Shown: positions 4,358 through 63,264, counted from the first letter of the stretch. The stretch: 64,000 nt of DNA from Mobula hypostoma (GCF_963921235.1 NC_086108.1:61382001-61446000), one strand, 5' to 3'. Notes: a model not told the origin generated them from the letters alone. Made by a program: numbers and translations.

Positions 4358-5061
4358 TTTTGGCATTTGAACAGTGGCCGATATGAGATTGGGATTTATG
4401 AGCAAGTACAAATTGAGGTAAGGCAGGGCAAGCTGAGTGGCTTTTGTTGTAGTGGACAGTCTTAGAGTGGGGGTTTTAGACTTCAGCTCTTTGAGGCTTC
4501 AGCGAAGAGAGTTAGAGTGGGGGTTTTAGACTTCAGCTCTTTGAGGCTTCAGCGAAGAGAGACTTGAGTGAGAGAAGGTGGAAAGCTGCAGGTAGAGTCT
4601 TTTCAGCTTATTTATTATTTCCTTCTTTATAATCGCATAGTTGGAACTGCAGGGACGTCAGGAAGAATAGTAGAATGCTTCTCTTGCAAGATGTGGGAAG
4701 GCAGGGAGACCTCCAGTGTCCTTGATGACTTCACATGCAAGGTGCATCCAGCTGCAGCTTCTAACACTCCGCATTAAGGAGTTGGAGCTGGAAATGGATG
4801 AACTCTGGATCACTTGGGAGGCTGAAGGGGTGATAGATAGGACGTTTAGAGAGGTAGTTACACCCAGGGTGCAGGGCACAGGAAACTGGGTGACAGGAGG
4901 GCCAAAGAGTTTAAACATCTAGTGTAGAGTACCCCTGTGGCCTTCCCTCTCAATGACAGGTAGACTTCTTGAGATACTCTTGGAGGGGGTGGGGTGACCT
5001 AGCAGAGGAAAGTCACAGTGGTCATGTCTCTGGCACTGAGTTGGGTTCTGTGACTCAAAAG
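4358..5061 (+). mobile_element. CR1 LINE 5' UTR and ORF1 N-terminus (zinc finger/leucine zipper), 3'-truncated
   Basis: VECFSCKMWE..DDFTC and CIQLQLLTLRIKELELEMDELWITWEAEGVIDRTFREVVTP (ORFs 4568-4777 and 4716-4922); homologous to 40220-40560. Confidence 0.8.
4462..4561 (+). repeat. Perfect 2 x 50-bp tandem duplication in the CR1 5' UTR
   Basis: TTAGAGTGGGGGTTTTAGACTTCAGCTCTTTGAGGCTTCAGCGAAGAGAG at 4462-4511 and 4512-4561. Confidence 0.95.
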
Positions 5062-9134: not shown

Positions 9135-11131
9135 TCATAATGTGTGACAAAACGGCTCCGATACCTGTACCATAAGGGGGCGTATTGCATGCCAATCTGA
9201 TGGCCAGGGATGGGCGAGCAGTTCATCAGATGTTATTATTCTCTTTGTTTCCTTCAATGCTTTTTCACATCTTTCTGACCATTCCGACTTTGCTCCTGTC
9301 TGTAACAGTATGTTCAATGGGTGCAGTACTGAGACAATGTTTGGGAGAAACCAGTGGTAGTAGTTTACAAGGCCCAAGAATGACCTGAATTGTAATACAT
9401 TTTCCAGTTTGGTGCCTGTAGCATTGCTTCAATCTTCTCCTGTGACTTACGTAAGCCATGCTTGTCAATGACATGTCTACAATATGAGATTTCATTCTTG
9501 GAAAAACTCACATTTCACTCTCTTTGTGTGCAGACTGGTAAATACTTACCAAGGTTCTGGTGGCACTGTTCATCACTTTGCCAGTCACAATAAATGTCAT
9601 CAAGGTAACATTGTGTTCCTGGGATATCTTGGAGCACTTGCTCCATTGCTCTTTGCCAAGTTGCAGGAGCTGATGCGATGCCAAAGACGAGACAATTTTA
9701 CTGGTGAGTGTTGAATGTGAGGAATTTCCTGCTCGATTCCTCAATCTTCATTTGCAGATGGGCTTGTGACAAGTCAATCTTTGAAAACCTTTCCCCACCT
9801 GCCAAAGATGCAAAAATGTCTTCTTTTCACAGCAGGGATACTGCACAGTATGCAGCACAAGGTTGATGCTCACCTTGAAATCCCCACATATGCGAATGAC
9901 TCCAGCTTTCCTTTTCTTGATCACCTGGACTATGGGCTCCAATCACTCCACTCAGACTTGGAGTGAATGTCAGATGCTTCTGAGCTCTGAAGTTCAGCAT
10001 CCATTTTAGGACATAGTGTGTAAGGCACTGGACGTGCTTTACGGAATCTTGGTGTTGCTGCTTCATCCAGTTCAATTCTGACATTCCTGCCTTTGAGTTC
10101 ACCAATCCCCTTCTCAAACACCTTCTCATTAGCCTTAAGCAGCTGTGCCAGTCTCTGGATAGAGCTACCATCTTGGCTACTGTTGCCAATTGACGTCATA
10201 CTGAGACCCCTGACTGAGTGGGGTTAACTGTTGTGTTCAGCCTCTGTACATCACATTTACTTTCAGTTTGCCTTTGGGAGACACTTTTTCACCTGTGCAG
10301 GTCTTTTACATCACTGAGGTCTTCTCTAACGATATTTTAGAAAACAGTCTGTAGTAGTCAGCCTCGGGAATTATAGATAAATTTGACCCTGTATCCAGCT
10401 CCATTTTCAGTTTTACACCAGACACATCTATTGTGATCCAGACGATTTTGTGATCTGCTTCAGTTATACTATGCATTTCTAAGCATGACAGTTCACCTTT
10501 GTTAGACTCTATATTGTCTGATTCTGTTTTATATTTAGTAACTTTATGCATTTCTTGGTTTTGTGTTTGAGACTTTTCACCCGGTTGTGCTTTTGATCTG
10601 CTTTGCACATTCTCTTTATGCGACCTTGTCTGTGACACTTTCTGCAGATTTTTTTCTTTGTACCAACAGTCATTTGTATCTTGGGAGGATTTGCCATATC
10701 GATAACATCTTTGGCTTTTTGCACCATTCAGGGACATTTTGCGCATTTCACATTCTAAACTCTTTTTCTGTAGTTCTGCTGCATCCTTTACTGCAGTCTC
10801 TAATGATATTGCAATGCCCGTTCTAAGGTTAGGTCTCTTTCAGATAACAGCCTCTTTTGAGTGCTTTGATGATGCATGTCACATCAACCCTGTCCCTTAA
10901 TGCATCGGAAAGTTCATCTCTAAAGTCACAGTACTGGGAAAGTTTGCGCAGTTCTGCAGTGTATTCAGAAATGTTTTCATCTTTTCTGTGGTTCCTTTTG
11001 TAAAATCTAAATATCTCAGCTATTACAATTGATTTTGGGCTCAAATGATTTTGAAAAATTGTAACAATTTTTCAGGGCTTTTCAGGGGTTATTAAGTTGC
11101 ATAAGAGACTGCGCATATTTGGGCCCATTAA
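9135..11131 (-). pseudogene. Gypsy gag-pol remnants (gag, zinc knuckle, aspartic protease, RT), frameshifted
   Basis: IAEIFRFYKRNHRKDENISEYTAELRKLSQYCDF (gag); CRKCHRQGRIKRMC; KMELDTGSNLSII (protease); PRFRKARPVPY, IRICGDFKVSIN and GLVNYYHWFLPNIVSVLHPLN (RT). Confidence 0.9.
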
Positions 11132-14100
11132 GGCACTGAGTCTGACTCTGTGGTGCAGAAGGGTGGGATGGAGAAGAGGAGAGCTATCGTCATTGGAGAC
11201 TCTATAGTCAGGGGAGCAGACAGGAGATTTTGTGGACGTGAGAAGGACACCCGCATGGTTTGTTGCCTCCCAGGTGCCAGGGTCTGGAATGTCTCTGACC
11301 GGGTGCATGACATCCTGGTACAAGAGGGAAAGCAATCAGAATTTGTGATACATGTTGGTACCAACGATATAGGCAGGAAGAGGGATGAGGTCCTGAAGTG
11401 TGAGTTTCAGGAACTAGGCAGAAGGCTGAAGAACCGGACCACAAGGGTGGCATTCTCAGGATTGCTGCCAGTGCTACGTGACGGTGATGGTAAGAATTAG
11501 AGGGGATGGCAGTTGAATGCATGGCTGAGGAGTTGGTGCAGGGAGCAGGGTTTCAGATTTTTGGATCATTGGGATCTCTTCTGGGGAAGGTGGGATCTGT
11601 ACAGATTGGATGGATTGCACCTGAACTCGAGGGGGAGCAATATCCTTGCAGGTAGGTTTGCTAGCATGGTTCGGGAGGGTTTAAACTAATTTGCGAGGGG
11701 GATGGGACCCAGAGCGATAGAGTAGTGAAAGAAGTGCATGGAGTAAAGCCAGATCTAACAATCAGAGAGGCTTTAAGGAAAGAGAAGCAGAATAAACGGT
11801 GTAAAGGTAGTAAGGTAGAAGGGTTGAAGTGTGTGTACTTCAATGCAAGAAGCATCAGGAACAAAGGTGATGAACTGAGAGCTTGGATACATACGTGGAA
11901 TTATGATGTAGTGGCCATTACAGAGACTAGGCTGGCACCAGGGCAGGAATGGATTCTCAATATTCCTGGATTTCAGTGCTTTAAAAGAGATAGAGAGGGG
12001 GAAGAAGGGGAGGAGGGGTGGCATTACTGGTCAGGGATACTATTACAGCTACAGAAAGGGTGGGTAATGTAGCAGGATCCTCCTTTGAGTTAGTATAGGT
12101 GGAAGTCAGGAACAGGAAGGGAGCAGTTACTCTATTGCGGGTATTCTACAGCCCCCTGGTAGCAGCAGAGATACAGGGGAGCAGATTGGGAGGAAGTTTT
12201 TGGAAAGGTGCAAAAATAACAGGGTTGTTATCATGGGTGACTTCAACTTCCCTAATATTGATTGGCTCCTGTTTAGTTCCAAGGGTTTAGATGGGGCAGA
12301 GTTTCTTAAGTGTGTCCAGGACGGATTCCTGTCACAGTATCTTGACAGGCCGACTAGGGGAAATACCATACTAGATCTAGTACTAGGTAATGAACCGGGT
12401 CAGGTCACAGATCTCTCAGTGGGTGAGCATCTGGGGGACAGTGACAACTGCTCCCTGGCCTTTAACATTATCATGGAAAAGGATAGAATCAGAGAGGACA
12501 GGAAAATTTTTAATTGGGGAAGGGCACATTATGAGGCTAAAAGGCTAGAACTTGCAGGTGTGAATTGAGATGATATTTTTGCAGGGAAATGTACTATGGA
12601 CATGTGGTCGATGTTTAGAGATCTCTTGCAGGATGTTAGGGATAAATTTGTCCCGGTGAGGAAGATAAAGAATGGTAGGGTGAAGGAACCATGGGTGACA
12701 AGTGAGGTGGAAAATCTAGTCAGGTGGAGGAAGGCAGCATACATGAGGTTCAGGAAGCAAGGATCAGAAGGGTCTATTGAGAAATATCGGGAAGCAAGAA
12801 AGGAGCTTAAGAAGGGGCTGAGAAGAGCAAGAAGGGGGCATGAGAAGTCCTTGGCGAGTAAGGTAAAGGAAAATCCCAAGGCATTCTTCAATTATGTGAA
12901 GAAAAAAAGGATGACAGGAGTGAAGGTAGGACCGATTAGAGATAAAGGTGGGAAGATGTGCCTGGAGGCTGTGGAAGTGAGCAAGATCCTCAATGAATAC
13001 TTCTCTTCGGTATTCACCAATGAGAGGGAACTTGATGATGGTGAGGACAATATGAGTGAAGTTGATGTTCTGGAGCATGTTGATATTAAGGGAGAGGAAG
13101 TGCTAGAGTTGTTAAAATACATTAGAACGGATAAGTCCCCGGGGCCTGACGGAATATTCCCCAGGCTGCTCTATGAGGCGAGGGAAGAGATTGCTGAGCC
13201 TCTGGCTAGGATCTTTATGTCCTCGTTGCCCACGGGAATGGTACTGGAGGATTGGAGGGAGACGAATGCTGTCCCCTTGTTCAGAAAAGGCAGTAGGGAT
13301 AGTCCGGGTAATTATAGACCAGTGAGCCTTATGTCTGTGGTGGGAAAGCTGTTGGAAAAGATTCTTAGAGATAGGATCTATGGGCATTTAGAGAATCATG
13401 GTCTGATCAGGAATGGTCAGCATGGCTTTGTGAAGGGCAGATCGTGTCTGACAAGCCTGATAGAGTTCTTTGAGGAGGTGACCAGGCATATAGATGAGGG
13501 TAGTGTAGTGGATGTGATCAACATGGATTTCAGTAAGGTATTTGACAAGGTTCCACATTGTAGGCGTATTCAGAAAGTCAGAAGGCTTGGGATCCAGGGA
13601 AGTTTGGCCAGGTGGATTCAGAATTGGCTTGCCTGCAGAAGGCAGAGAGTCATGGTGGAGGGAGACATTCAGATTGGAGGGTTGTGACTAGTGGTGTCCC
13701 ACAAGGATCGGTTCTGGGACCTCTACTTTTCCTGATTTTTATTAACGACCTGGATGTGGGGGTAGAAGGGTGGGTTGGCAAGTTTGCAGACGACACAAAG
13801 GTTGGTGGTGTTGTAGATAGTGTAGAGGATTGTTGAAGATTGCAGAGAGACATTGATAGGATGCAGAAGTGGGCTGAGAAGTGGCAGATGGAGTTCAACC
13901 CAGAGAAGTGTGAGGTGGTACACTTTGGAAGGACAAACTCCAAGGCAGAGTACAAAGTAAATGGCAGGATACTTGGTAGTGTGGAGGAGCAGAGGGATCT
14001 CAGGGTACATGTCCACAGATCCCTGAAAGTTGCCTCACAGGTAGATAGGGTAGTTAAGAAAGCATATGGGGTGTTAGCTTTCATAAGTTGAGAGACAGAG

Positions 14101-14687
14101 TTTAAGAGTCACGATGTAATGATGCAGCTCTCTAAATCTCTGGTTAGGCCACACGTGGAGTACTGTGTCCAGTTCTGGTCGCCTCACCATAGGAAGGATG
14201 TGGAAGCATTGGAAATGGTACAGAGGAGATTTACCAGGATGCTGCCTGGTTTACAGAGTATGGATAATGATCAGAGATTAAGGGATCTAGGGCTCTACTC
14301 TGGAGAGAAGGAGGATGAGAGGAAGGAAGGAGGAGACATGATAGAGGTATACAAGATATTAAGAGGAATAGATAGAGTAGACAGCCAGCGCCTCTTCCCC
14401 AGGGCACCACTGCTCAATACAAGAGGACATGGCTTTAAGGTAAGGGGTGGGAAGTTCGAGGGGGATATTAGAGGAAGGTTTTTTACTCAGAGAGTGGTTG
14501 GTGTGTGGAATGCACTGCCTGAGTCAGTGGTGGAGGCAGATACACTAGTGAAGTTTAAGAGACTACTGGATGGGTATATGGAGAAATTTAAGGTGGGGGG
14601 GTTATGTGAGAGGCAGGGTTTGAGGGTCGGCACAACATTGTGGGCCGACGGGGCCTGTAATGTGCTGTACTATTCTATGTTCTCTGT
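11132..14687 (+). mobile_element. 5'-truncated CR1 LINE (ORF1 SGNH esterase; ORF2 APE endonuclease-RT) inserted in Gypsy gag
   Basis: ORF1 IGDSIVRG..HVGTND..DGLH; ORF2 [70 protein letters not shown] tail; several stops and frameshifts. Confidence 0.95.
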
Positions 14688-14694
14688 AAGATAT

Positions 14695-14830
14695 CAAGTG
14701 TAGGGGCTTTCTTTTGCTCCTCTACATTGCTTGAGTTACAATGCAGTTCAGTCCTCCCAATATACAACTCTCAGCCTTCATTAGAGCGATCAAATTTGTC
14801 AACTTTGCCAACTGAAGCCATCACCATGTT
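14695..14830 (-). pseudogene. Gypsy gag N-terminus, separated from the rest by the CR1
   Basis: MASVGKVDKFDRSNEG*ELYIGRTELHCNSSNVEEQKKAP continues into LSALMGPNMRSLLCNLITPEKP at 11072-11140. Confidence 0.75.
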
Positions 14831-18330: not shown

Positions 18331-18337
18331 AAAAGGA

Positions 18338-18639
18338 TGTCGCCGATCACCCTGGACCTCGGACTCCTGCTCGGGGTCTCACCCCATTAGCGGATTCACA
18401 GCACCTTGTCCATTCTCTGTCTCTCTCTCTCTCCCGCCTTTTCCCCAAAAACCCGCGCATCACAATATCTTACAGACACACAGAAAGAATAACATCTATC
18501 CTAATTGGTTCATAACATCCTCTTATCAATAACATAATCCAAACAAACTGCTGGTGGGAGGATTTTCTCAGCAGTTAACATAACAAAGAAGCCATTTTAA
18601 TTAGACTACGCAGTAACATAAAAGAAGAAACCCCTTACA
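18338..18639 (-). repeat. 3' LTR, internally deleted (302 bp)
   Basis: Matches 21431-21732 (about 17 substitutions and a CT indel by manual count); starts with TGT. Confidence 0.9.
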
Positions 18640-18652
18640 CTCTCCCCCCACC
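18640..18652 (-). other. Polypurine tract
   Basis: Plus strand CTCTCCCCCCACC (minus GGTGGGGGGAGAG) abuts the 3' LTR. Confidence 0.85.
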
Positions 18653-19134
18653 AAATAAAGTCATGTCTTCATGACTTCTATATAACTCGCCAACCAGTCC
18701 TACCGACACAAAAACCCATCCAGATACACACAGTGACATTGCTCCCCAAACAATAGACCTTCCGCCCGTCCACAGGCACTACATAGGCCAACCTATCTGG
18801 GAGCTTCCTAATCCTCGGAGACCTCCGTACCCCCTCACCTAAACCCTAAAGGCTCGGACACTACTAGGGATACCTCAAGTCTGCTTGCCAACTCCTCTTT
18901 CACTCATGCCACCACTACAACTCGGAGCCCCCTGTCCTGTGTCTGGGGCCCCACTTCTTTTCCTTCCTGGTCCTGCTGTAACTGAGACTGCCCACAGCTA
19001 GCCCTCCCCACTACACCTGACTCAGTGGGAGAAGGGCCAAAGGTCTCTTCCTCAATCACGGGGAAGTTAGCGGAAGGCAGCATGTACCACATGTCCGGCA
19101 CATCATCCTTCGAATCCATATTCTTCCTCATTCC

Positions 19135-19940
19135 CTCGATCGGTAGCTGCTGTTTGAGTTTCTCCAAACTGAAGCATTTAGCTGGGGCAACCCCTTCAGC
19201 CTCCTGCAGTCAAGACATCAGCTTCTTCTGGGACTCCTCCAACTCTCGCCACAGCCTCAGCAGCTCTGACTTAGGGTTCTTGGCCATCTCCATCTGGGAC
19301 GCAGTTACCCCACCAGCTGCTTCCACCCTGACCTGAAAAGCAACAGTTAAACTTCTTCCAGGTCAACTTTCAGTTTTTCCACTTCATTTAAAGTGTCGAT
19401 AGTCGTCTTCAGGTTCCTTTCAAGCGTCCTTTTTCCGAGATCTGTCCTCCATTTCTTCACCTCCTCGGGAGTGTAGTCAAACTCCCTTCCCTGGGCTCTC
19501 GGTTTTCTGTTGGCCTTAGTCAGACCACTTCCTTGATCTTCCCCAACTTGTAAGTCTTCCAATCTTTTCTGGATTGATGACTTGAGTTTCTGCTGATCCC
19601 TTCGAAGGTGGGTCATTGTTTCGTCTCGCTGGATTAATTCATCAGTATGACCGCAGTGTCAGCTCGGAGTTCCATTTCTCCTTCTCCACTTTGACGAGCA
19701 TGAATTCCAAGTCTGCAATGGTCTCCCTGCAAGAGCGGCACTCCATCTCCGGCCTGCATTTCTGAGTGTTCAGTTCAGCGGTGCAAATCCCCCCTCTCCC
19801 ATGTCTCATTCCAATTGACGACCTGGGTCCACCACGTCTGTTCCAACACCAGGAAGTTCAACTGGTATGTTGGGTCATTTTTCTCACATTGCACCAAACT
19901 CCTCCGGTCAAAAACTCCTCCACATTTTGCACTTTGCTTC
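19135..19940 (-). pseudogene. Captured, intron-less, degenerate myosin heavy chain rod (S2/LMM) fragments, MYH16-like
   Basis: Manual translation: [132 protein letters not shown], collinear with class II myosin rod motifs (EKNDL, DLELTLAKVEKEK, LDDLQAEEDK, RLEEAGGATSAQIE, AKCSSLEK). Confidence 0.85.
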
Positions 19941-19957
19941 TGTTGCCCAGGCTCAGC

Positions 19958-20223
19958 CACTCGCCTCGCCTCGCCTCATAGTCCCCCCAGGCGAATCCAA
20001 GCTCTAGGCGGTCATCCACATACGTCAAAACTCCACACACCTTCACTTCCCCCATGGTCTTCCTCATGCCCTGCGGGAAGGATGCAGGAGCTCCGGATAT
20101 GCCCTCTGGCATCTTTTCGGATTGGAAGAATCCTAGGGAACTAATAACGGCCGTCTTCTCCTCATCAGCCGCACTCCTCGGGATCTGGCAACATCCACTC
20201 CTCAGATCCAGCTCATTAAACCA
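19958..20223 (-). pseudogene. Gypsy reverse transcriptase fragment
   Basis: ORF 19858-20241 reads [52 protein letters not shown]. Confidence 0.88.
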
Positions 20224-20559
20224 CATCGCATAAATCCACACATTCGCTGCCTACATCTTCCGTGGTGCCAGGGTCCAGTCGCCGCGACCTCTCTCTCACT
20301 GAGGTGTCTTCAGCAGTCAACTCCCCTCCCTCATGGTAGCTCGGAGCGACTACTAAGAGGGTCTCACCCTCAGCTACTTCCCCCAGGCCGTACCACAGCT
20401 GGGTCTTGTTTAAATTCGGTACCAGCTCAAGGCTGCTACACACGTCCTCAGAAGCAACTCGACACGCTGGCTGCCCAGACAATTTCCCATGAACTCCAGG
20501 GTCATTAACCAATCATCATCTTCTGGATAACTACTGGCACTGGTACCCCAAATCTCCGG

Positions 20560-20690
20560 TGCTTAAGGGTAAATGCTTCAGACACAGGTTGTAAAACGAA
20601 CTGTACAACAACTTGACCTGCGCGCCGGGGTCGAGGATGGCTTTAGCATTGCTTCCCTCTATCCGTAACGACACCCTGAGGCGTGGTCCC
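20560..20690 (-). pseudogene. Gypsy aspartic protease remnant
   Basis: Minus-strand translation [49 protein letters not shown] is a decayed LDTGSQV active site. Confidence 0.75.
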
Positions 20691-21007
20691 TCTCAGCCTT
20701 CAGGAATAGGCTCTTCTCCTTTTGGAAGTTCATTGGTACATTGCTGGGAACATGCTTCCCCAGAGACCCCAAGCCGCTCCCCCACTGGGCCTCCACTAAG
20801 TTTCCCGACACCCCTCTGATCAGCTGAACAACTGACGGAGGGGCTGATCCCCTGAAATGATCCCCCGGCACTGCAAGCAATTTAGCCGCCCTCCTAGCCA
20901 GAGAAGACACACTGAAAACTTTTCCCCCTCTTTCAAACAACTGGAACCCACAGAGACACACATTACTGATTTAAACCGGGCAAGCACACAGCATACCACT
21001 AAATCCA

Positions 21008-21025
21008 ATCCTGGACGTGCCCCCA
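21008..21025 (-). other. Primer-binding site complementary to tRNA-Pro
   Basis: Minus strand TGGGGGCACGTCCAGGAT versus canonical tRNA-Pro PBS TGGGGGCTCGTCCGGGAT (16/18), 2 nt from the LTR end. Confidence 0.85.
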
Positions 21026-21027
21026 AA

Positions 21028-21732
21028 TGTAGCCCCCCCGCCCCCCCATCGGCCAGCCTCAGGGTCACTCAACTCGCTGTTGTCTAGGGAAACAGCCCTC
21101 AGTCCCACCAAACTGGGTAATAGTTTGTGTGGATGCTGTGTGATGTACCCCTCCCTGCCCAAATAACAGACAATACACCAGATACGATTAAATGATTTAC
21201 AGTTTATAGATATTACTGAAACTATATAATTAATAGAGAATAAAATATAAAAGGAAAATAAAAAGTGCCACACTTATCAAAGTTCATTCTCTTCGTGCCC
21301 AAACAGTTGGAGCTCAGGACCCTCCTTCTTCACCCTGCGTCTCCCCTTTGGACCACCTCGACCTGCCACCTGGGACCAACAACGGTGGTCAACCAGACGC
21401 TACACACGAGTCCGTCTCCGTCTCCTTTCCTCGCCGAACACCCTGGACTTCGGACTCCTGCTCGGGGTCCGACCCCATTAGCGGACTCACAGCACCTTGT
21501 TCATCCTCTGTCTCTCTCTCTCTCTCCCGCCTTCTCCCCAAAAACCCGCGCATCACAATATCTTTCAGACACACAGAAAGAATAACATCTATCCCAATTG
21601 GTTCGTAACATCCTCTTATCAATAACATATTCCAAACAAACTGCTAGTGGGAGGACTTTCTCAGCAGTTAACATAACAAAGAAGCCATTTTAATTAGACT
21701 ACGCAGTAATATGAAAGAAGAAACTCCTTACA
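21028..21732 (-). repeat. 5' LTR (705 bp)
   Basis: TGTAGC...CTTACA, bounded by the PBS and the AGGA TSD. Confidence 0.9.
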
Positions 21733-24368
21733 AGGACATATAAGTAGATGTAGAAGTGGACGTGCCCAAGTAGGTACCAGACCCAATCAGTTATATAAAA
21801 AAACTACAGATCTCTTTCTGCAGCTCTCATGTGGGGCACCCAGACAGCACAACTGCTGATCATCACTTTCTGATTCCACCAATACCCTTCATCCCATCTT
21901 CACCTCCACATGCGTACACATCTCTAACTCAACCCTTTCCACTCTGATCACAAAGCTGGCCTTTCCCCACAGCAGCACCTGATCAACCACTTATGCCTTT
22001 ACCTGCATTTTTTCAATTACCGATTTCTAATTACTCCACCCAATTGATACACTAACTCTCACCGCAAGCTTCTCCCTTCTGCTCCCGTGCCCATGATACA
22101 CAAACAACTTCTTTTCAGCTCTTTGTATCAAAGTGGTGCAAGAACTGGGGCCTCTTGTCACAGTATCAGGCCCTACAAACTGCAAAATCTGTGGGCTAAC
22201 TGGTTGGCAGGTCTCTCCTGCAGCCAAATAATTTCTCAGACAACTGTTCAGATTTCTGTGCGAAGATTAGGTGGTATATTTTTACTTTATACTGTATAAT
22301 GCAGCATCATTTATGTTCATCTCAAACGTTGCTGCACTTGGGTACATGGGAAGAGATAAAAGAAGTTGCAGATGTCATGACACCCATTTCTCTACACAGA
22401 TCATGCACCGTAGGGCTCTGTTGAATTAAGCTTCAGCACCAGTGAGAACAAATCAATGTGATTTGGAGAAATTTCCTGCACAGTCTCTGATTAATGCAGA
22501 TTGAGATTTCATCTTGTCACCGTAAACATTGATCAACAATAGCAGCTTCCAGTGGAATCATCTTTTACCAATGACCTTCTGGTATTCCTTTAGGATATGG
22601 CTCAGAAATCCTATTGCAAAACTCAAAACTCTTCAATATTAATAAAAATAATCAATAATTAATCAGCAAAGTGCACAATTTAGGTCTCCCCCTCCAGCCA
22701 ACAAAAGCACCTTCACAAGTTATAGCAACCTTTGTTCATAATTTCAACAGCATTTCCTTATGCATGCCAAATGTGCAAGTTTAAGATGAAACAAAATTTC
22801 AAGTGTACTAATACTGCAGCTGAACATTAGCATTCCTCCATGTTGTTCTGTAACTATTAATTTCTGTTACTACTGTGAATTTGAAGCAATGTGGTAAGAC
22901 CTAGAGACAATGTAAAACTGGAGCTCCCAAGAGGAGCACCTTGGGGGGTTTCCAAGAGTGATTCTCAATAATAGGTGATGCTCAATAATCAGAGGTGGAA
23001 CCGGGGAGAGAAAATCTCAGGGGTAACGATTGGAAAGACGGAGAGCTGAGGAGAGGGAATCCTAAGCAATTGTTATTTTGCAAGGAAAGGACCAATAATG
23101 TGGGTTGGGGGGGTTGGGGGGGAAAGTTAAACTCATGATTAGCCTTGCTTCCTTTTTAAAGAAATGTTCATGCAGAATAATAATTCTGCAAAATATACCA
23201 AATCTGTCAAAAGAAAATGTATGCAAATTATATGCTAGAATATATCACAGCATACTAAAACCCTTTTCTGAAATTCAGCTCCTTTGGAAACAACAAATTT
23301 GAATTCAGGAAGTGCAGATCAAAAAGCAAATGCTAAAACATTGCAATGTTTAGAGTTCGTGACAGAGGCCAAGTTTCTGTCCCTACAGTTTCTATGAGGG
23401 CTACATACTCAGAGATATTTCAGAAGGCAGACTGATCACAATCTAAAGCAAATGCCAGCAGCAGCATTTTAGGTATATCTTGAACCTGCTGCATTAAAAT
23501 ACATGGGAAGCTTGCAAATGCTAAAACATCCATTTCCTCAACAAACTGTGGTCCAAGGATGCCCGGAAGATGTTTGTCCTGAAATTGGACTGAATTATTT
23601 CCTCTCATTATTTCAACTATCTATCGTGGCCACTATTATGTCTATAAATGAGGCACCTAATATTCTGGTAACAGGAAATTGGTCAAAGGGACTCTGAGCT
23701 AAATTGTATTTGTTGTGCAAGGATCCGGAATTCACTGCCAGTGGGAAAAAGTCAGTTTCCTTTTTGATGCAAATAGGAACACCAGGAGGGCTGCTGCTAC
23801 TGATCTACGGCACTACAGATGCTGCTGATCCACCACAGCACCGGTGGTTCCACTCTACAGCTTTGCTGCTGCTTAAAACCACTCCCAAGATGCTGCCTCT
23901 GGACGGCACTCCAGCCACTACGATCAGCCCTCCCTCACCAGCCTCCTTACAGCCCCACCTCTCTGGCAATTACCCAAAAGTTGCCCCGGCCGGGACTAGT
24001 GGGCAAATAAATAAATCACCTGTCTGGTGGACAGTGTGTAAGGGACCAATGATTGCCACCAGCTCGCACTGATTACTTCAGCCGGGACTTGCGTCTACTG
24101 ATTCAGTTGGGCAGGGGTGCTGCCTCTGTCTAAAAAAGAGGAATAAATAAATCTGATCATCATATTCAGTGTCTTGCAACCTTCTTGCTAATGTGTGAAG
24201 TATCAATGATTATATCAGTAGTATAAGGCATAAAACCAGATCTCATTCCACATTCAGAGTGACTACTTCTTTGTGTATACAGTACCATAGTTTAATAAAC
24301 AAGACCATTAGGGGGTCACCAGTCTGAGTCTATGTCAGAATGCTAGGTTACATAAATGCATACGTATA

Positions 24369-31616: not shown

Positions 31617-32830
31617 AAATGGATGTAGTGTACCTGGACTTTCAGAAAGCCTTTGATAAGGTCTCACATAGGAGGTTAGTGGGCAAAATTGGAGCTCATG
31701 GTATTGGGGATAGGGTACTGACATGGATAGAAAGTTGGTTGGCAGACAGGAAACAAAGAGTAGGGATTAACGGGTCCCTTTCAGAATGGCAGGTAGTGAC
31801 TAGTGGGGTACCGCAAGGCTCAGTGCTGGGACCGCAGCTATTCACAATATACATTAACGATTTAGATGAAGGGATTAAAAGTAACATCAGCAAATTTGCA
31901 GATGACACAAAGCTGAGTGGCAGTGTGAAATGTGAGGAGGATGTTATGAGAATGCTGGGTGACTTGGACAGGCTGGGTGAGTGGGCAGATGCATGGCAGA
32001 TGCAGTTTAATATGGATAAATGTGAGGTTATTCACTTTGGTGGCAAGAACAGGAAGGCAGATTACTATCTGAATGGTGTCAAGTTAGGAAAAGGGGAAGT
32101 ACAACGAGATCTAGGTGTCCTTGTTCATCAGTCACTGAAAGTAAGCATGCAGGTACAGCGGGCAGTGAAGAAAGCTAATAGCATGTTGGCCTTCATAACA
32201 AGGGGAGTTGAGTATAGGAGCAAAGAGGTCCTTCTGCAGTTGTACAGGGCCCTGGTGAGACCACACCTGGAGTATTGTGTGCAGTTTTGGTCTCCAAATT
32301 TGAGGAAGGGCATTCTTGCTATTGAGAGAGTGCAGCACAGGTTCACAATGTTAATTCGCAGGATGGCGGGACTGTCATATGTTGAAAGATTGGAGTGACT
32401 GGGCTTGTATACACTGGAATTTAGAAGGATGAAAGGGGATCTGATTGAAACATATAGGATTATTAAGGGATTGGACACGCTAGAGGCAGGAAACATGTTC
32501 CTGATGTTGGGGGAGTCCAGAACCAGAGGCCACAGTTTAAGAATAAGGGGTAGGCCATTTAGAACGGAGTTGAGGAAAAACTTTTTCACCCAGAGAGTTG
32601 TGGATCTGTGGTATGCTCTGCCTCAGAAGGCAGTGGAGGCCAATTCTCTGGATGCTTTCAAGAAAGAATTAGATAGAGCTCTTAAAGATAGTGGAATCAA
32701 GGGATATGGGGAGAAGGTAGGAACGGGGTACTGATTGTCGATGATCAGCCGTGATCACAGTGAATAGCGGTGCTGGCTCGAAGGGCCGAATGGCCTACTC
32801 CTGCACCTAATGCCTATTGTCTATTGTCTA
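31617..32830 (+). mobile_element. 5'-truncated, relatively young CR1 LINE (RT C-terminal half and 3' UTR)
   Basis: ORFs 31619-32398 and 32405-32734 ([43 protein letters not shown]) separated by one in-frame TGA; (CTATTGT)n tail. Confidence 0.95.
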
Positions 32831-61152: not shown

Positions 61153-63264
61153 CATTTGTGTGTTCATCCATCCTGCAATGATGAGAAACACTCTAACTAT
61201 CCGCTGAACTAGTCTGTGGGTACGCAGGCGGCTGGACAGGCCAATCCACACTTGAAAATTCTTTGGCGGTGTGGACAAAAGATGGCAGCCGCGTTGGGCT
61301 GCGGGTCACTGGCTTGGGCTTTCCTGGCCAGCCTATGTCTCTCTGCTGCAATTGTCCCTTCTGCCTCATGCGTGACTGCATCGAGCTGGTGGGCAGAGTG
61401 CCACTCAACCCAATCCTGGGTGACATGTTCCCATGTGTCTGGGTTGATGCCAAAGGCTTTTAGTAAAGTTTTCAGAGTGTCTTTACAACATTTCCTTTGG
61501 CTTCTGTGGGAATGCTTTCGTTTACATAGTGCACCATAAAACAGTCTCTTAGACAGCTGATGGTCTGGCCTGAGCTACATGACCTGCCCAGTGTAACTGG
61601 AACTGCATCAGGAAAGTGTAGATACAGGACAGGCCCACCTTAGTAAGTATCTCAGTGTCAGGAATTCTATTTTGCCACTTAATGCTGAGGAGCTTTGCGA
61701 GGCCGACTGTATGGAAATGGTTCAATTTCTTGGCATGCTGTTGGTACACTGTCCATATTTCACAGGCCTAAAGCAGAGTGGGAAGAACTATGACTCTATA
61801 AACATTCTGCTTCGTCTGTAGACTTATACCTCTTCTGTTCAGGACGACGGTATGAAGTCTACCTAAGGGTACACTTCCTTTGCCAATCCTAGTGTTTACT
61901 TCATCGTCAATGGCAATGTTCTGGGACTGTGTGATGCTAAGATACGTGAACCTATTCACTGGGTTGAGCCTTTGGCTATTGATTATGATGTTTGGCTCAA
62001 TGTATCATTTCCCCGGTGCATTACTTCAGTCTTCTTGGTGTTGATGGTAAGCCCAAAATTGGTACATGCATCAGAAAACATGTCAACGCTGCACTGCATA
62101 TCATCTTCTGAGTCAGCATTAAGGGCACAGTCATCAGCAAACAGGAGCTTTTCTGTTAGTACTGCACCTCCTTCCCCATGGGCCTCAGCTGGTATTGCAT
62201 CTGATCCAGGAGCTTTGCTGCTAGAGAGCAGATGTATTGCTGCCTGTGTCTCTGCTAAGGTCAGTGGGACATCCAGTGCTTCCTTGACAGGTACTTGGGG
62301 CAGGTGATTAGTGGCTTTGTCATTTATAGTCGAAGGATGATTCAGAACACTTTTAAAGTACTCAGCCCACCTATGAAGAGTTTTCTCTTTTTCCATGATC
62401 AGTGTGTTCCCACGAGCACTAAGGAGAGGGGAAGATCCTGATGATGTGGGGCCATAGACTTCTTTTAGTGCAGTGTAGAAGTTCTTTAAATCATACTTAT
62501 CTGCGTACATCTGGATCTCATCAGCTTTATTGCTCAACCAGGAATCCTGCATCAAGCACAGTTTGTGTTGAACAGTCTTTGATCTACTATTGAAGGCATC
62601 CTTCTTTGAGATGGACTTAGGGTCACTGAGGAAAGCATTGTAGAGTCGATGTTTCTCATCCAGCAGTTGTTCGATGTTGACACAGTTTTCATCAAACCAG
62701 TCCTTGTGCTTTCTGGTTGCAGGCCCCACAAACTCCGTAGCAGTGTTGTAGATCAGTTCTCAAAGGGTTGACCAAGCAGCTTCCACATTCTGATTGTCCG
62801 GAGGGCAGGATTTTAAGTGGTCTTCCAGAGGGTCAACAAAAGACTGCTTTATGTTGCTGCTTACCAGCTTGGAGACATTCTGCTGTCTTGGGGCTTTCTT
62901 TCCATGAGGGCGTCTCTTAGGCTGGATATGGATGTTCAGATTAGAAATGATGAGTCAATGGTCTATGCAGCATTCAGCACTGCACACAGATTTTGTCACC
63001 TTTACATCTTGCCCGTCTCTCTTCCTGACAATGATGTAGACAATTAGGTGCCAGTACTTAGAGCGGGGATGCATCCACGAAGTTCTGTTACAGGTGGGAA
63101 AGCAGAGACTGTGCTGGTGATTAACAATTCATGTTCAGCTCATGTCTGAAGTAGTAGAAGACTGTTGTACTTGCAGCGGCCAACACCATCATTCCCAATG
63201 ACCCCACCTCTGGAATTGATGTTAGAAGCTACTCTTGGGTTGAGATCACCAAGGATGATAAGTT

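Follow-up and report, generated by a model that had tools for sequence, protein, structure and literature searches.

The stretch of DNA examined here, which we call the window, is a 64,000-nucleotide (nt) segment of Mobula hypostoma (GCF_963921235.1, NC_086108.1:61382001-61446000). Between positions 18338 and 21732, on the minus strand, it contains the remains of a Gypsy long terminal repeat (LTR) retrotransposon that carries a piece of host myosin heavy chain mRNA. Such an element had been proposed from the sequence by itself, and the outer features of that original prediction, namely the ends (TGT at 18338, ACA at 21732), an AGGA target-site duplication (TSD), a primer-binding site (PBS, 21008-21025) and a polypurine tract (PPT, 18640-18653), are all present. 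The peptides it quoted, with LDPGAQV and YVDD, are all located on the minus strand, where they occupy three frames with stops between them. The parts are listed below in the element's 5' to 3' order; RT is reverse transcriptase, the parent is a copy of an integrase-bearing family of the same genome, and the donor is the host myosin gene, both described later.

21733..21736, no strand: TSD AGGA, 5' side of the element (window sequence)
21028..21732, minus: 5' LTR, about 705 bp, TGTA...CTACA (sequence; LTRs of sister copies are about 700 bp)
21008..21025, minus: PBS (sequence)
20807..20963, minus: gag remnant, ATG at 20963, degenerate zinc knuckle (sequence and parent comparison)
20800..20806, minus: parent-derived heptamer G GGA AAC, where the frame steps by -1 between gag and pol (sequence and copy comparison)
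20488..20799, minus: protease remnant, LDPGAQV, in the parent LDTGSQV (RVP, E=0.25, weak; parent comparison)
19969..20223, minus: RT fragment with YVDD at 20011-20022 (RVT_1, E=3e-5, below the curated cut-off)
19829..19910, minus: RNase H remnant including EKNDPTYQL, bounds approximate (14/29 residues as in the parent's RNase H)
19135..19828, minus: captured spliced myosin rod (alignment to donor exons)
19672-19828, minus: donor exon C
19569-19671, minus: donor exon D
19482-19568, minus: donor exon E
19352-19481, minus: donor exon F
19333-19351, minus: donor exon G
19294-19332, minus: donor exons H/I
19240-19293, minus: donor exon J
19229-19239, minus: donor exon M
19135-19228, minus: donor exon N
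19135..19139, minus: TCGAG microhomology at the myosin-to-pol junction (host exon and 4/6 parent copies shown)
18904..19134, minus: post-integrase pol tail up to the family stop codon, 18904-18906 (69-76% nt identity to the parent)
18640..18653, minus: PPT (sequence)
18338..18639, minus: 3' LTR, only the first 300 bp kept, end CGACA (LTR alignment)
18334..18337, no strand: TSD AGGA, 3' side of the element (window sequence)

All of the Ty3/Gypsy features (TG...CA LTRs, PBS, PPT and a short TSD) are present, the complete LTRs being those of sister copies, and the PBS is presumably of the tRNA-Pro type. The gag, protease, RT and RNase H remnants are collinear with the parent and with the protein P0002; integrase, which follows RNase H in the parent, has no counterpart in the family. 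The features needed for autonomy are lacking, as RT is cut, the RNase H remnant is only 29 aa long and integrase is missing. The window copy further carries a gag deletion of about 370 bp and a 61-nt deletion, each of its own, along with private frameshifts and stops, and it is a dead member of a non-autonomous Gypsy family. Its two LTRs are unequal, with 283 of 300 positions identical between the truncated 3' LTR and the 5' LTR, while in sister copies both LTRs measure about 700 bp. Although only its first 300 bp are left, the window's 3' LTR has a CA end and a perfect TSD, which suggests that the LTR either suffered an internal deletion or was integrated with an already shortened end.

The captured insert and its donor gene

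A 97-aa rod frame of the window matches myosin-7 residues 983-1077 in a search of the PDB (E=2.7e-4), and the rod of a sister copy matches myosin-4/7 with E=7e-14. A Pfam scan of the window's rod fragments gave no recognition, a weak homologue search with the sister's rod piece against long proteins gave no match, and for donor exon J the ESM Atlas offered no more than a generic myosin-tail name. The donor gene lies at G000:C68:14.5-14.7 Mb and was located (C68:14.73 Mb) through a rod exon of a paralogue, the C36 gene. That paralogue, at C36:112.7 Mb, had itself been considered as the donor, but it aligns only in short pieces at 71-77% nt identity and was superseded by the C68 gene. Donor exons C to N are all bounded by AG/GT and give 541 open codons.

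The insert (0.69 kb) is collinear with these exons at 79-83% nt identity in 30/30 copies, as expected of the class II myosin rod that had been proposed. Among these 30 copies the exon joints are contiguous at C/D in 29, at D/E, E/F and I/J in 30 each, and at M/N in 26; the F/G joint is contiguous in the four sisters displayed and has been lost from the window copy. Introns are absent at six joints, where those of the donor measure 2.7-38.9 kb. Because the joints are contiguous and introns of this size are gone, the insert represents spliced mRNA, and its source is a gene of the MYH16 class. The proposed capture of host mRNA by a Gypsy element is borne out by the located donor and by these intron-spanning joints. 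Neither of the two outcomes named beforehand as contrary to it was observed, the first being hits that lack a collinear myosin alignment and the second an insert with its own poly(A) tail and TSD. The spliced segment is not one continuous piece, however, as family-wide deletions of 27, 126 (21+105), 624 and 9 nt, at short repeats, lie within it. A search for the rear of donor exon J, the only deleted exon sequence used as a query, matched the donor alone (1/1 candidate) and revealed no element copy that retains it. The sequence TTAACTGTTGCTTTTCAG ahead of RVEAAGG resembles a splice acceptor and was considered as an intron remnant; it is donor exon G sequence.

We built a protein tree of 21 rows, 10 of them elements, with spurious segments of two rows masked and with no named MYH15 or MYH16 row. 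The element rows form one clade (96/90) that is sister to the C68 donor (97/94); next outward comes a Narcine myosin (100/99), then the C36 gene. The group holding the donor and its C36 paralogue is split from seven other myosin genes of the same genome at 100/100. The end branch of the donor is 0.009, and therefore nearly all of the amino-acid change lies on the element side. An intron at ..SQ|IEM.. is common to the donor and the C36 gene, and at this point the genes of the fast cluster and the C2 gene are uninterrupted (the comparison covers genes of this genome). In the portion of a review available to us, MYH16 is described as the most distant vertebrate MYH, with five additional introns (PMC6402096). 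The original prediction's MYH16-like label for the donor is thus supported indirectly, by the tree, the shared extra intron and the review passage, in a comparison in which a named MYH16 was not among the sequences.

RefSeq names are automatic, and the Narcine relative is labelled 'myosin-6-like'. Its model (P0026) reads QQKSA at the exon end where the donor has QEKSA; the donor exon preceding the captured part (L072:496-645, G000:C68:14480496-14480645) apparently ends ..QEKSA|GT, about 7 codons shorter than its C36 counterpart. The rod of the donor gene (G000:C68:14.48-14.74 Mb, L053-L079) alone spans >250 kb, and the distance from the gene to the fast myosin cluster (C68:15.3-15.9 Mb) is about 0.6 Mb. 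Mammalian MYH16 is described as unlinked to other MYH genes in the same portion of the review (PMC6402096). The accessible parts of two further sources (PMC11050549 and 10.1101/2025.10.28.684953) contain nothing on a second MYH16-class gene in rays. RNA of this second gene must, we infer, have occurred in the germ-line cells where the element replicated.

The integrase-bearing parent and the spread of the hybrid

An integrase query revealed a large integrase-bearing family in the same genome (150 scored of 16,278 candidates). A copy of this family, the parent, aligns with a copy of the window's subfamily (W) in collinear blocks of 66-81% nt identity over the LTR, gag, protease, RT, RNase H and a post-integrase tail, and the LTR of one sister, L089, is like the parental LTR in patches of 67-81%. 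The parent's own LTR pair is 94.6% alike, giving an age similar to that of the non-autonomous family. Its Gag is related to P0002, which contains PF14893 and PF20846 and belongs to the PNMA/Ma-type Gypsy lineage. A tandem array of about 84-bp units was seen in the C-terminal part of pol in the parent copy L157/L167 (G000:C40, about 64402990-64403640).

The parent alignment redraws the borders of the insert. The original prediction had taken 19135-19940 as myosin and counted EKNDPTYQL(NFLVLEQ) in it; from the alignment it follows that this peptide is RNase H (parent counterpart ERNYPTHKLEFLALKWAVVD), so that 19135-19828 stands as myosin and the remainder is RNase H remnant. Replacement of RNase H and integrase, as had been proposed, holds for all of integrase and for most of RNase H, a short remnant of which is left; the stretch replaced measures about 1.7-1.8 kb. 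A pol tail does follow the myosin part, at 18904-19134, whereas RRSPRIRKLPDRLAY, which had been assigned to it, sits downstream of the family stop codon.

Might the insert instead be a processed pseudogene, made by a long interspersed element (LINE), that landed in one Gypsy copy and was then multiplied with it? It is spliced, and LINE-like RT frames are present in the window. Both insert ends, however, lie in mid-exon and far from the mRNA 3' end, and inspection of the junction regions showed no poly(A) or separate TSD at the 3' end in 30/30 copies or at the 5' end in 29/30. The RNase H-integrase stretch is replaced rather than interrupted, and at the 3' junction a short match of 5 nt (TCGAG) is common to the host exon and the parent. 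A processed-pseudogene origin, which we consider highly improbable, is already largely refuted by these junctions.

Capture and spread of a myosin mRNA by the Gypsy family are, in our view, nearly certain. A Gypsy element with gag, a -1 step and protease, RT, RNase H and integrase took up a spliced MYH16-class mRNA, losing most of RNase H and all of integrase, probably through two RT template switches onto a co-packaged mRNA. The hybrid retained the LTRs, PBS and PPT, became shorter through more deletions and diverged into subfamilies, and its copies now occupy hundreds of sites. Shared cis elements and a similar LTR age suggest that this later copying used the parent's proteins in trans. Two points count against this scheme: the 5' junction differs between subfamilies and showed no clear microhomology, and the single parent copy that was followed through gag-pol is itself broken in frame.

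A DNA search with the insert gave 866 candidates, and all 40 that were scored matched; in the 30 loci retrieved, long blocks align collinearly with the element. Searching for a 24-nt pattern that spans the myosin-to-pol junction gave 231 exact matches (reversed control, 0). This number is a floor for subfamily W, so the non-autonomous family that had been proposed, to be counted by its junction, has at least 231 copies with the same myosin-pol junction. Full copies measure 4.0-4.2 kb. Among 20 copies the ends were resolved in 11, with a perfect 4-bp TSD in six and an imperfect one in five; nine had unresolved ends. LTR pairs are 91.0-96.2% alike in 15/20 copies of a first set and 93.3-97.7% alike in 11/20 of a second, the other five and nine not aligning well. 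The copy tree, made from 46 of 49 copies after three with low coverage were dropped, is star-like with a median end branch of 0.046.

A protein search added 25 loci of other subfamilies (A and B), which have the same 3' junction, a later 5' junction, other deletions (72, 876 and 219 nt) and 84-89% likeness to the donor. RefSeq models with the same fusion and 3' junction are found in Hypanus sabinus, Hemitrygon akajei, Mobula birostris and M. hypostoma; those of Hypanus sabinus form a cluster of 10 models, three of which, from different loci, are 729 aa long. Since one of the Mobula models resembles a locus of the present genome at 97-99%, we count only the two dasyatids as independent. The deletions of 126 and 624 nt are common to the subfamilies and visible also in the dasyatid models. 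Subfamilies A and B and the RefSeq models were found through open frames and so form a biased sample. Since the inserts of this genome and of the two dasyatid rays form one clade beside the donor, they go back to one old capture.

Reading frame and amino-acid change

The hybrid has kept a long reading frame across its joints. At 11/11 deletion and capture joints, a frame step of 0 is the most frequent one among 50 W copies, the in-frame copies numbering 20/41, 37/44, 43/44, 37/47, 37/47, 27/47, 27/33, 32/33, 47/49, 49/50 and 42/49. In the coding frame no column has a majority stop, against 48 and 52 columns in the other two frames, and three copies chosen for long frames can be read through 812-836 codons. 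The 101 fixed differences from the host, spread 31/39/31 over the codon positions, include no fixed stop. Nonsense changes make up 4.3% of private changes, so about 4 fixed stops would be expected (P about 0.01). Between W and B about 7 are expected and 0 seen, although B was picked via its open frame and this test overlaps that against the host.

From gag to protease the frame step is -1 in 38/44 W copies, at G GGA AAC. This heptamer is kept in 37/44 covered W copies, 12/16 B copies and 0/3 covered A copies, and the parent carries it with the gag stop five codons behind. The available portion of PMC5009743 ranks G_GGA_AAC with the most shift-prone -1 heptamers and describes Ma3 as shifting at a heptamer of the classical type. 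We regard GGGAAAC as a candidate site of programmed -1 frameshifting. A G-run further upstream, G GGA AAG, had been considered as the site (z -0.9 to -2.2 in 5 copies); it was dropped because in the parent G GGA AAC is soon followed by the gag stop. In several copies (L142, L143, L134) and in the Hypanus 729-aa models, P0001 among them, gag and pol are in one frame through a small length change in a G-run that precedes the heptamer; L142 and L143/L134 belong to different small clades of the copy tree. In a predicted stem 5-35 nt behind GGGAAAC, the CTC/GAG of the parent is replaced by CCC/GGG in the family; the change looks compensatory, although this is a single observation and the folding z is not significant.

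The amino acids tell another story. The ratio of synonymous to nonsynonymous changes between subfamilies is that of the private changes (Fisher p 0.10-1.0), and prolines break the heptads of the rod. The amino acids of protease, RT and RNase H, of the myosin part and of the tail drift neutrally, with no constraint on the protein. For Gag the comparison covered only 51 codons, so Gag may be under constraint. These observations bear on the idea that the Gag-protease-RT-myosin-tail fusion serves the element or the host, for example by Gag-mediated entry into the parent's particle with its own RNA, or as a coiled-coil spacer. A working fusion fits the retained frame, gag ATG and -1 heptamer, the 729-aa models at three Hypanus loci (one a TMEM192 isoform by name) and an SDHAF3 model fused to the insert. 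It fits poorly with the neutral drift outside Gag, the prolines in the rod, the different rod pieces of each subfamily and a protease motif turned to DPG, and we think it unlikely.

Another account deserves more weight: the open frame may be a by-product, with in-frame microhomologies favoured in template-switch deletions, few master lineages, an inert cargo and no stop that chanced to fix. Of the microhomologies in heptad-coding sequence 45-69% are in frame, by a null calculated over the myosin part alone, and in-frame deletions are to that extent expected. The neutral synonymous to nonsynonymous ratios everywhere agree with this, as does the broken state of most copies. If 55% of deletions were in frame by microhomology alone, however, 11/11 would have a probability of about 0.001 (0.55 to the power 11). 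The shortfall of fixed stops in the host and W-B comparisons also argues against it, as does the fact that lineages with different deletions remain open. We rate this account as possible, though less probable than selection on the frame.

By a modest margin of belief, then, we favour the reading that the open frame and not the protein was selected. Master RNAs may have been selected for translation from gag, via the -1 site, to the stop near the 3' LTR, the probable reason being that RNA with an early stop is less stable or is packaged less well, and the myosin piece would be stop-free filler rather than a working coiled-coil. In its full form, in which master copies were selected only for end-to-end translatability (gag start, -1 site, eleven in-frame joints, no internal stop) since before the mobulid-dasyatid split or across a transfer, with the rod as stop-free filler, we give the proposal an even chance. 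A number of observations weigh on the other side. The gag1-gag2 joint is in frame in 20/41 copies only, and the RNase H-myosin joint in 27/47. Low divergence by itself would keep the heptamer in the family about as often as is observed, and the stem-loop predicted to follow the heptamer has no unusual stability (z -0.8 to +1.6). In the family the stop lies 273 nt ahead of the 3' LTR, whereas the parent's frame stays open nearly as far as the LTR; close to the end, therefore, one stop has become fixed, as the by-product account would allow. A 2-nt slip occurs in 10/49 copies, scattered on the star-like and poorly resolved tree (9 changes, shuffled mean 9.3). Taking capture, spread and frame together, we find the explanation as a whole probable.

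Related captures and gene annotation in rays

The capture mechanism is already known; what differs here is scale, age and the keeping of the frame. LTR-mediated retrocopies, or pseudo-LTR retrotransposons, of animals have been described with zebrafish, chicken and mouse cases and a template-switch model (Tan et al. 2016, PMC5131818; this and the following comparisons refer to the portion of that paper available to us). As in those cases, a partial mRNA here replaces part of the internal open reading frames, there is no poly(A) or TSD, and the chimera retroposes further; the microsimilarity reported at their junctions has a possible counterpart in the ray family at the 3' junction only. The cases of Tan et al. 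are young, single- or few-copy loci, and 14/21 of the older non-fly cases have loss-of-function changes. In the ray family, by contrast, one capture is present in at least 231 copies of one subfamily and in others besides, in two ray families, at 11-21% from the donor and with the frame kept, though further vertebrate cases of Tan et al. may bear on the comparison of copy number. Maize Bs1 and human FAM8A1/HERV-K, both as cited in PMC5131818, are likewise LTR elements with host mRNA pieces replacing pol. Bs1, however, combines three genes in a functional chimera, where the ray family has one donor and neutral amino-acid drift, and FAM8A1 is an untranscribed processed pseudogene.

With the PNMA/Ma-type lineage the family shares a related Gag and a shift-prone heptamer, although P0002 is itself one 1950-aa frame. 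Oncogene-transducing defective retroviruses have host coding sequence fused in frame to gag-pol and depend on a helper, and in them the captured protein is the selected unit; in the ray family the captured protein is not conserved, and no env was seen. A literature search that reached few subscription journals, and neither Repbase nor Dfam, found no paper on the present ray family. Host-gene capture by an LTR element has here grown from a single retrocopy into a large, long-lived family in ray genomes. If selection acted on the frame only, the family would be a natural experiment in which the success of a parasitic LTR element depends on translation in cis and not on the protein. Its hundreds of neutral copies would then serve as an internal control in a direct test of what makes non-autonomous LTR elements keep their frames, be it RNA surveillance or packaging coupled to translation.

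The family also affects annotation, as had been foreseen in the suggestion of spurious myosin gene models. Of 19 hits in a profile-free search, 17 were looked up or named, and their labels include myosin-16-like, myosin-7B-like, cardiac- or skeletal-myosin-like and an SDHAF3 isoform; 'putative uncharacterized protein MYH16' is another RefSeq name on an element-derived model. Such myosin and 'isoform' models would distort counts of ray myosin genes. No shark or skate element was among the hits of this search, which holds one representative per 50% cluster and gives no proof of absence. In the Hypanus models P0019 and P0001 the element is joined to the SDHAF3 N-terminus in one and annotated as a TMEM192 isoform in the other, which may reflect exonisation or annotation artefacts.

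Elsewhere in the window, LINE-like RT frames lie at 12089-14700 (plus), 31619-32395 (plus) and 61986-62759 (minus); they are ordinary repeats, whose type we take to be LINE. An unrelated Gypsy-like remnant at 9165-10839 (minus) has a weak match to P0002 and a zinc-knuckle-like frame, and a perfect two-copy tandem duplication of 50 bp is present at 4462-4561.

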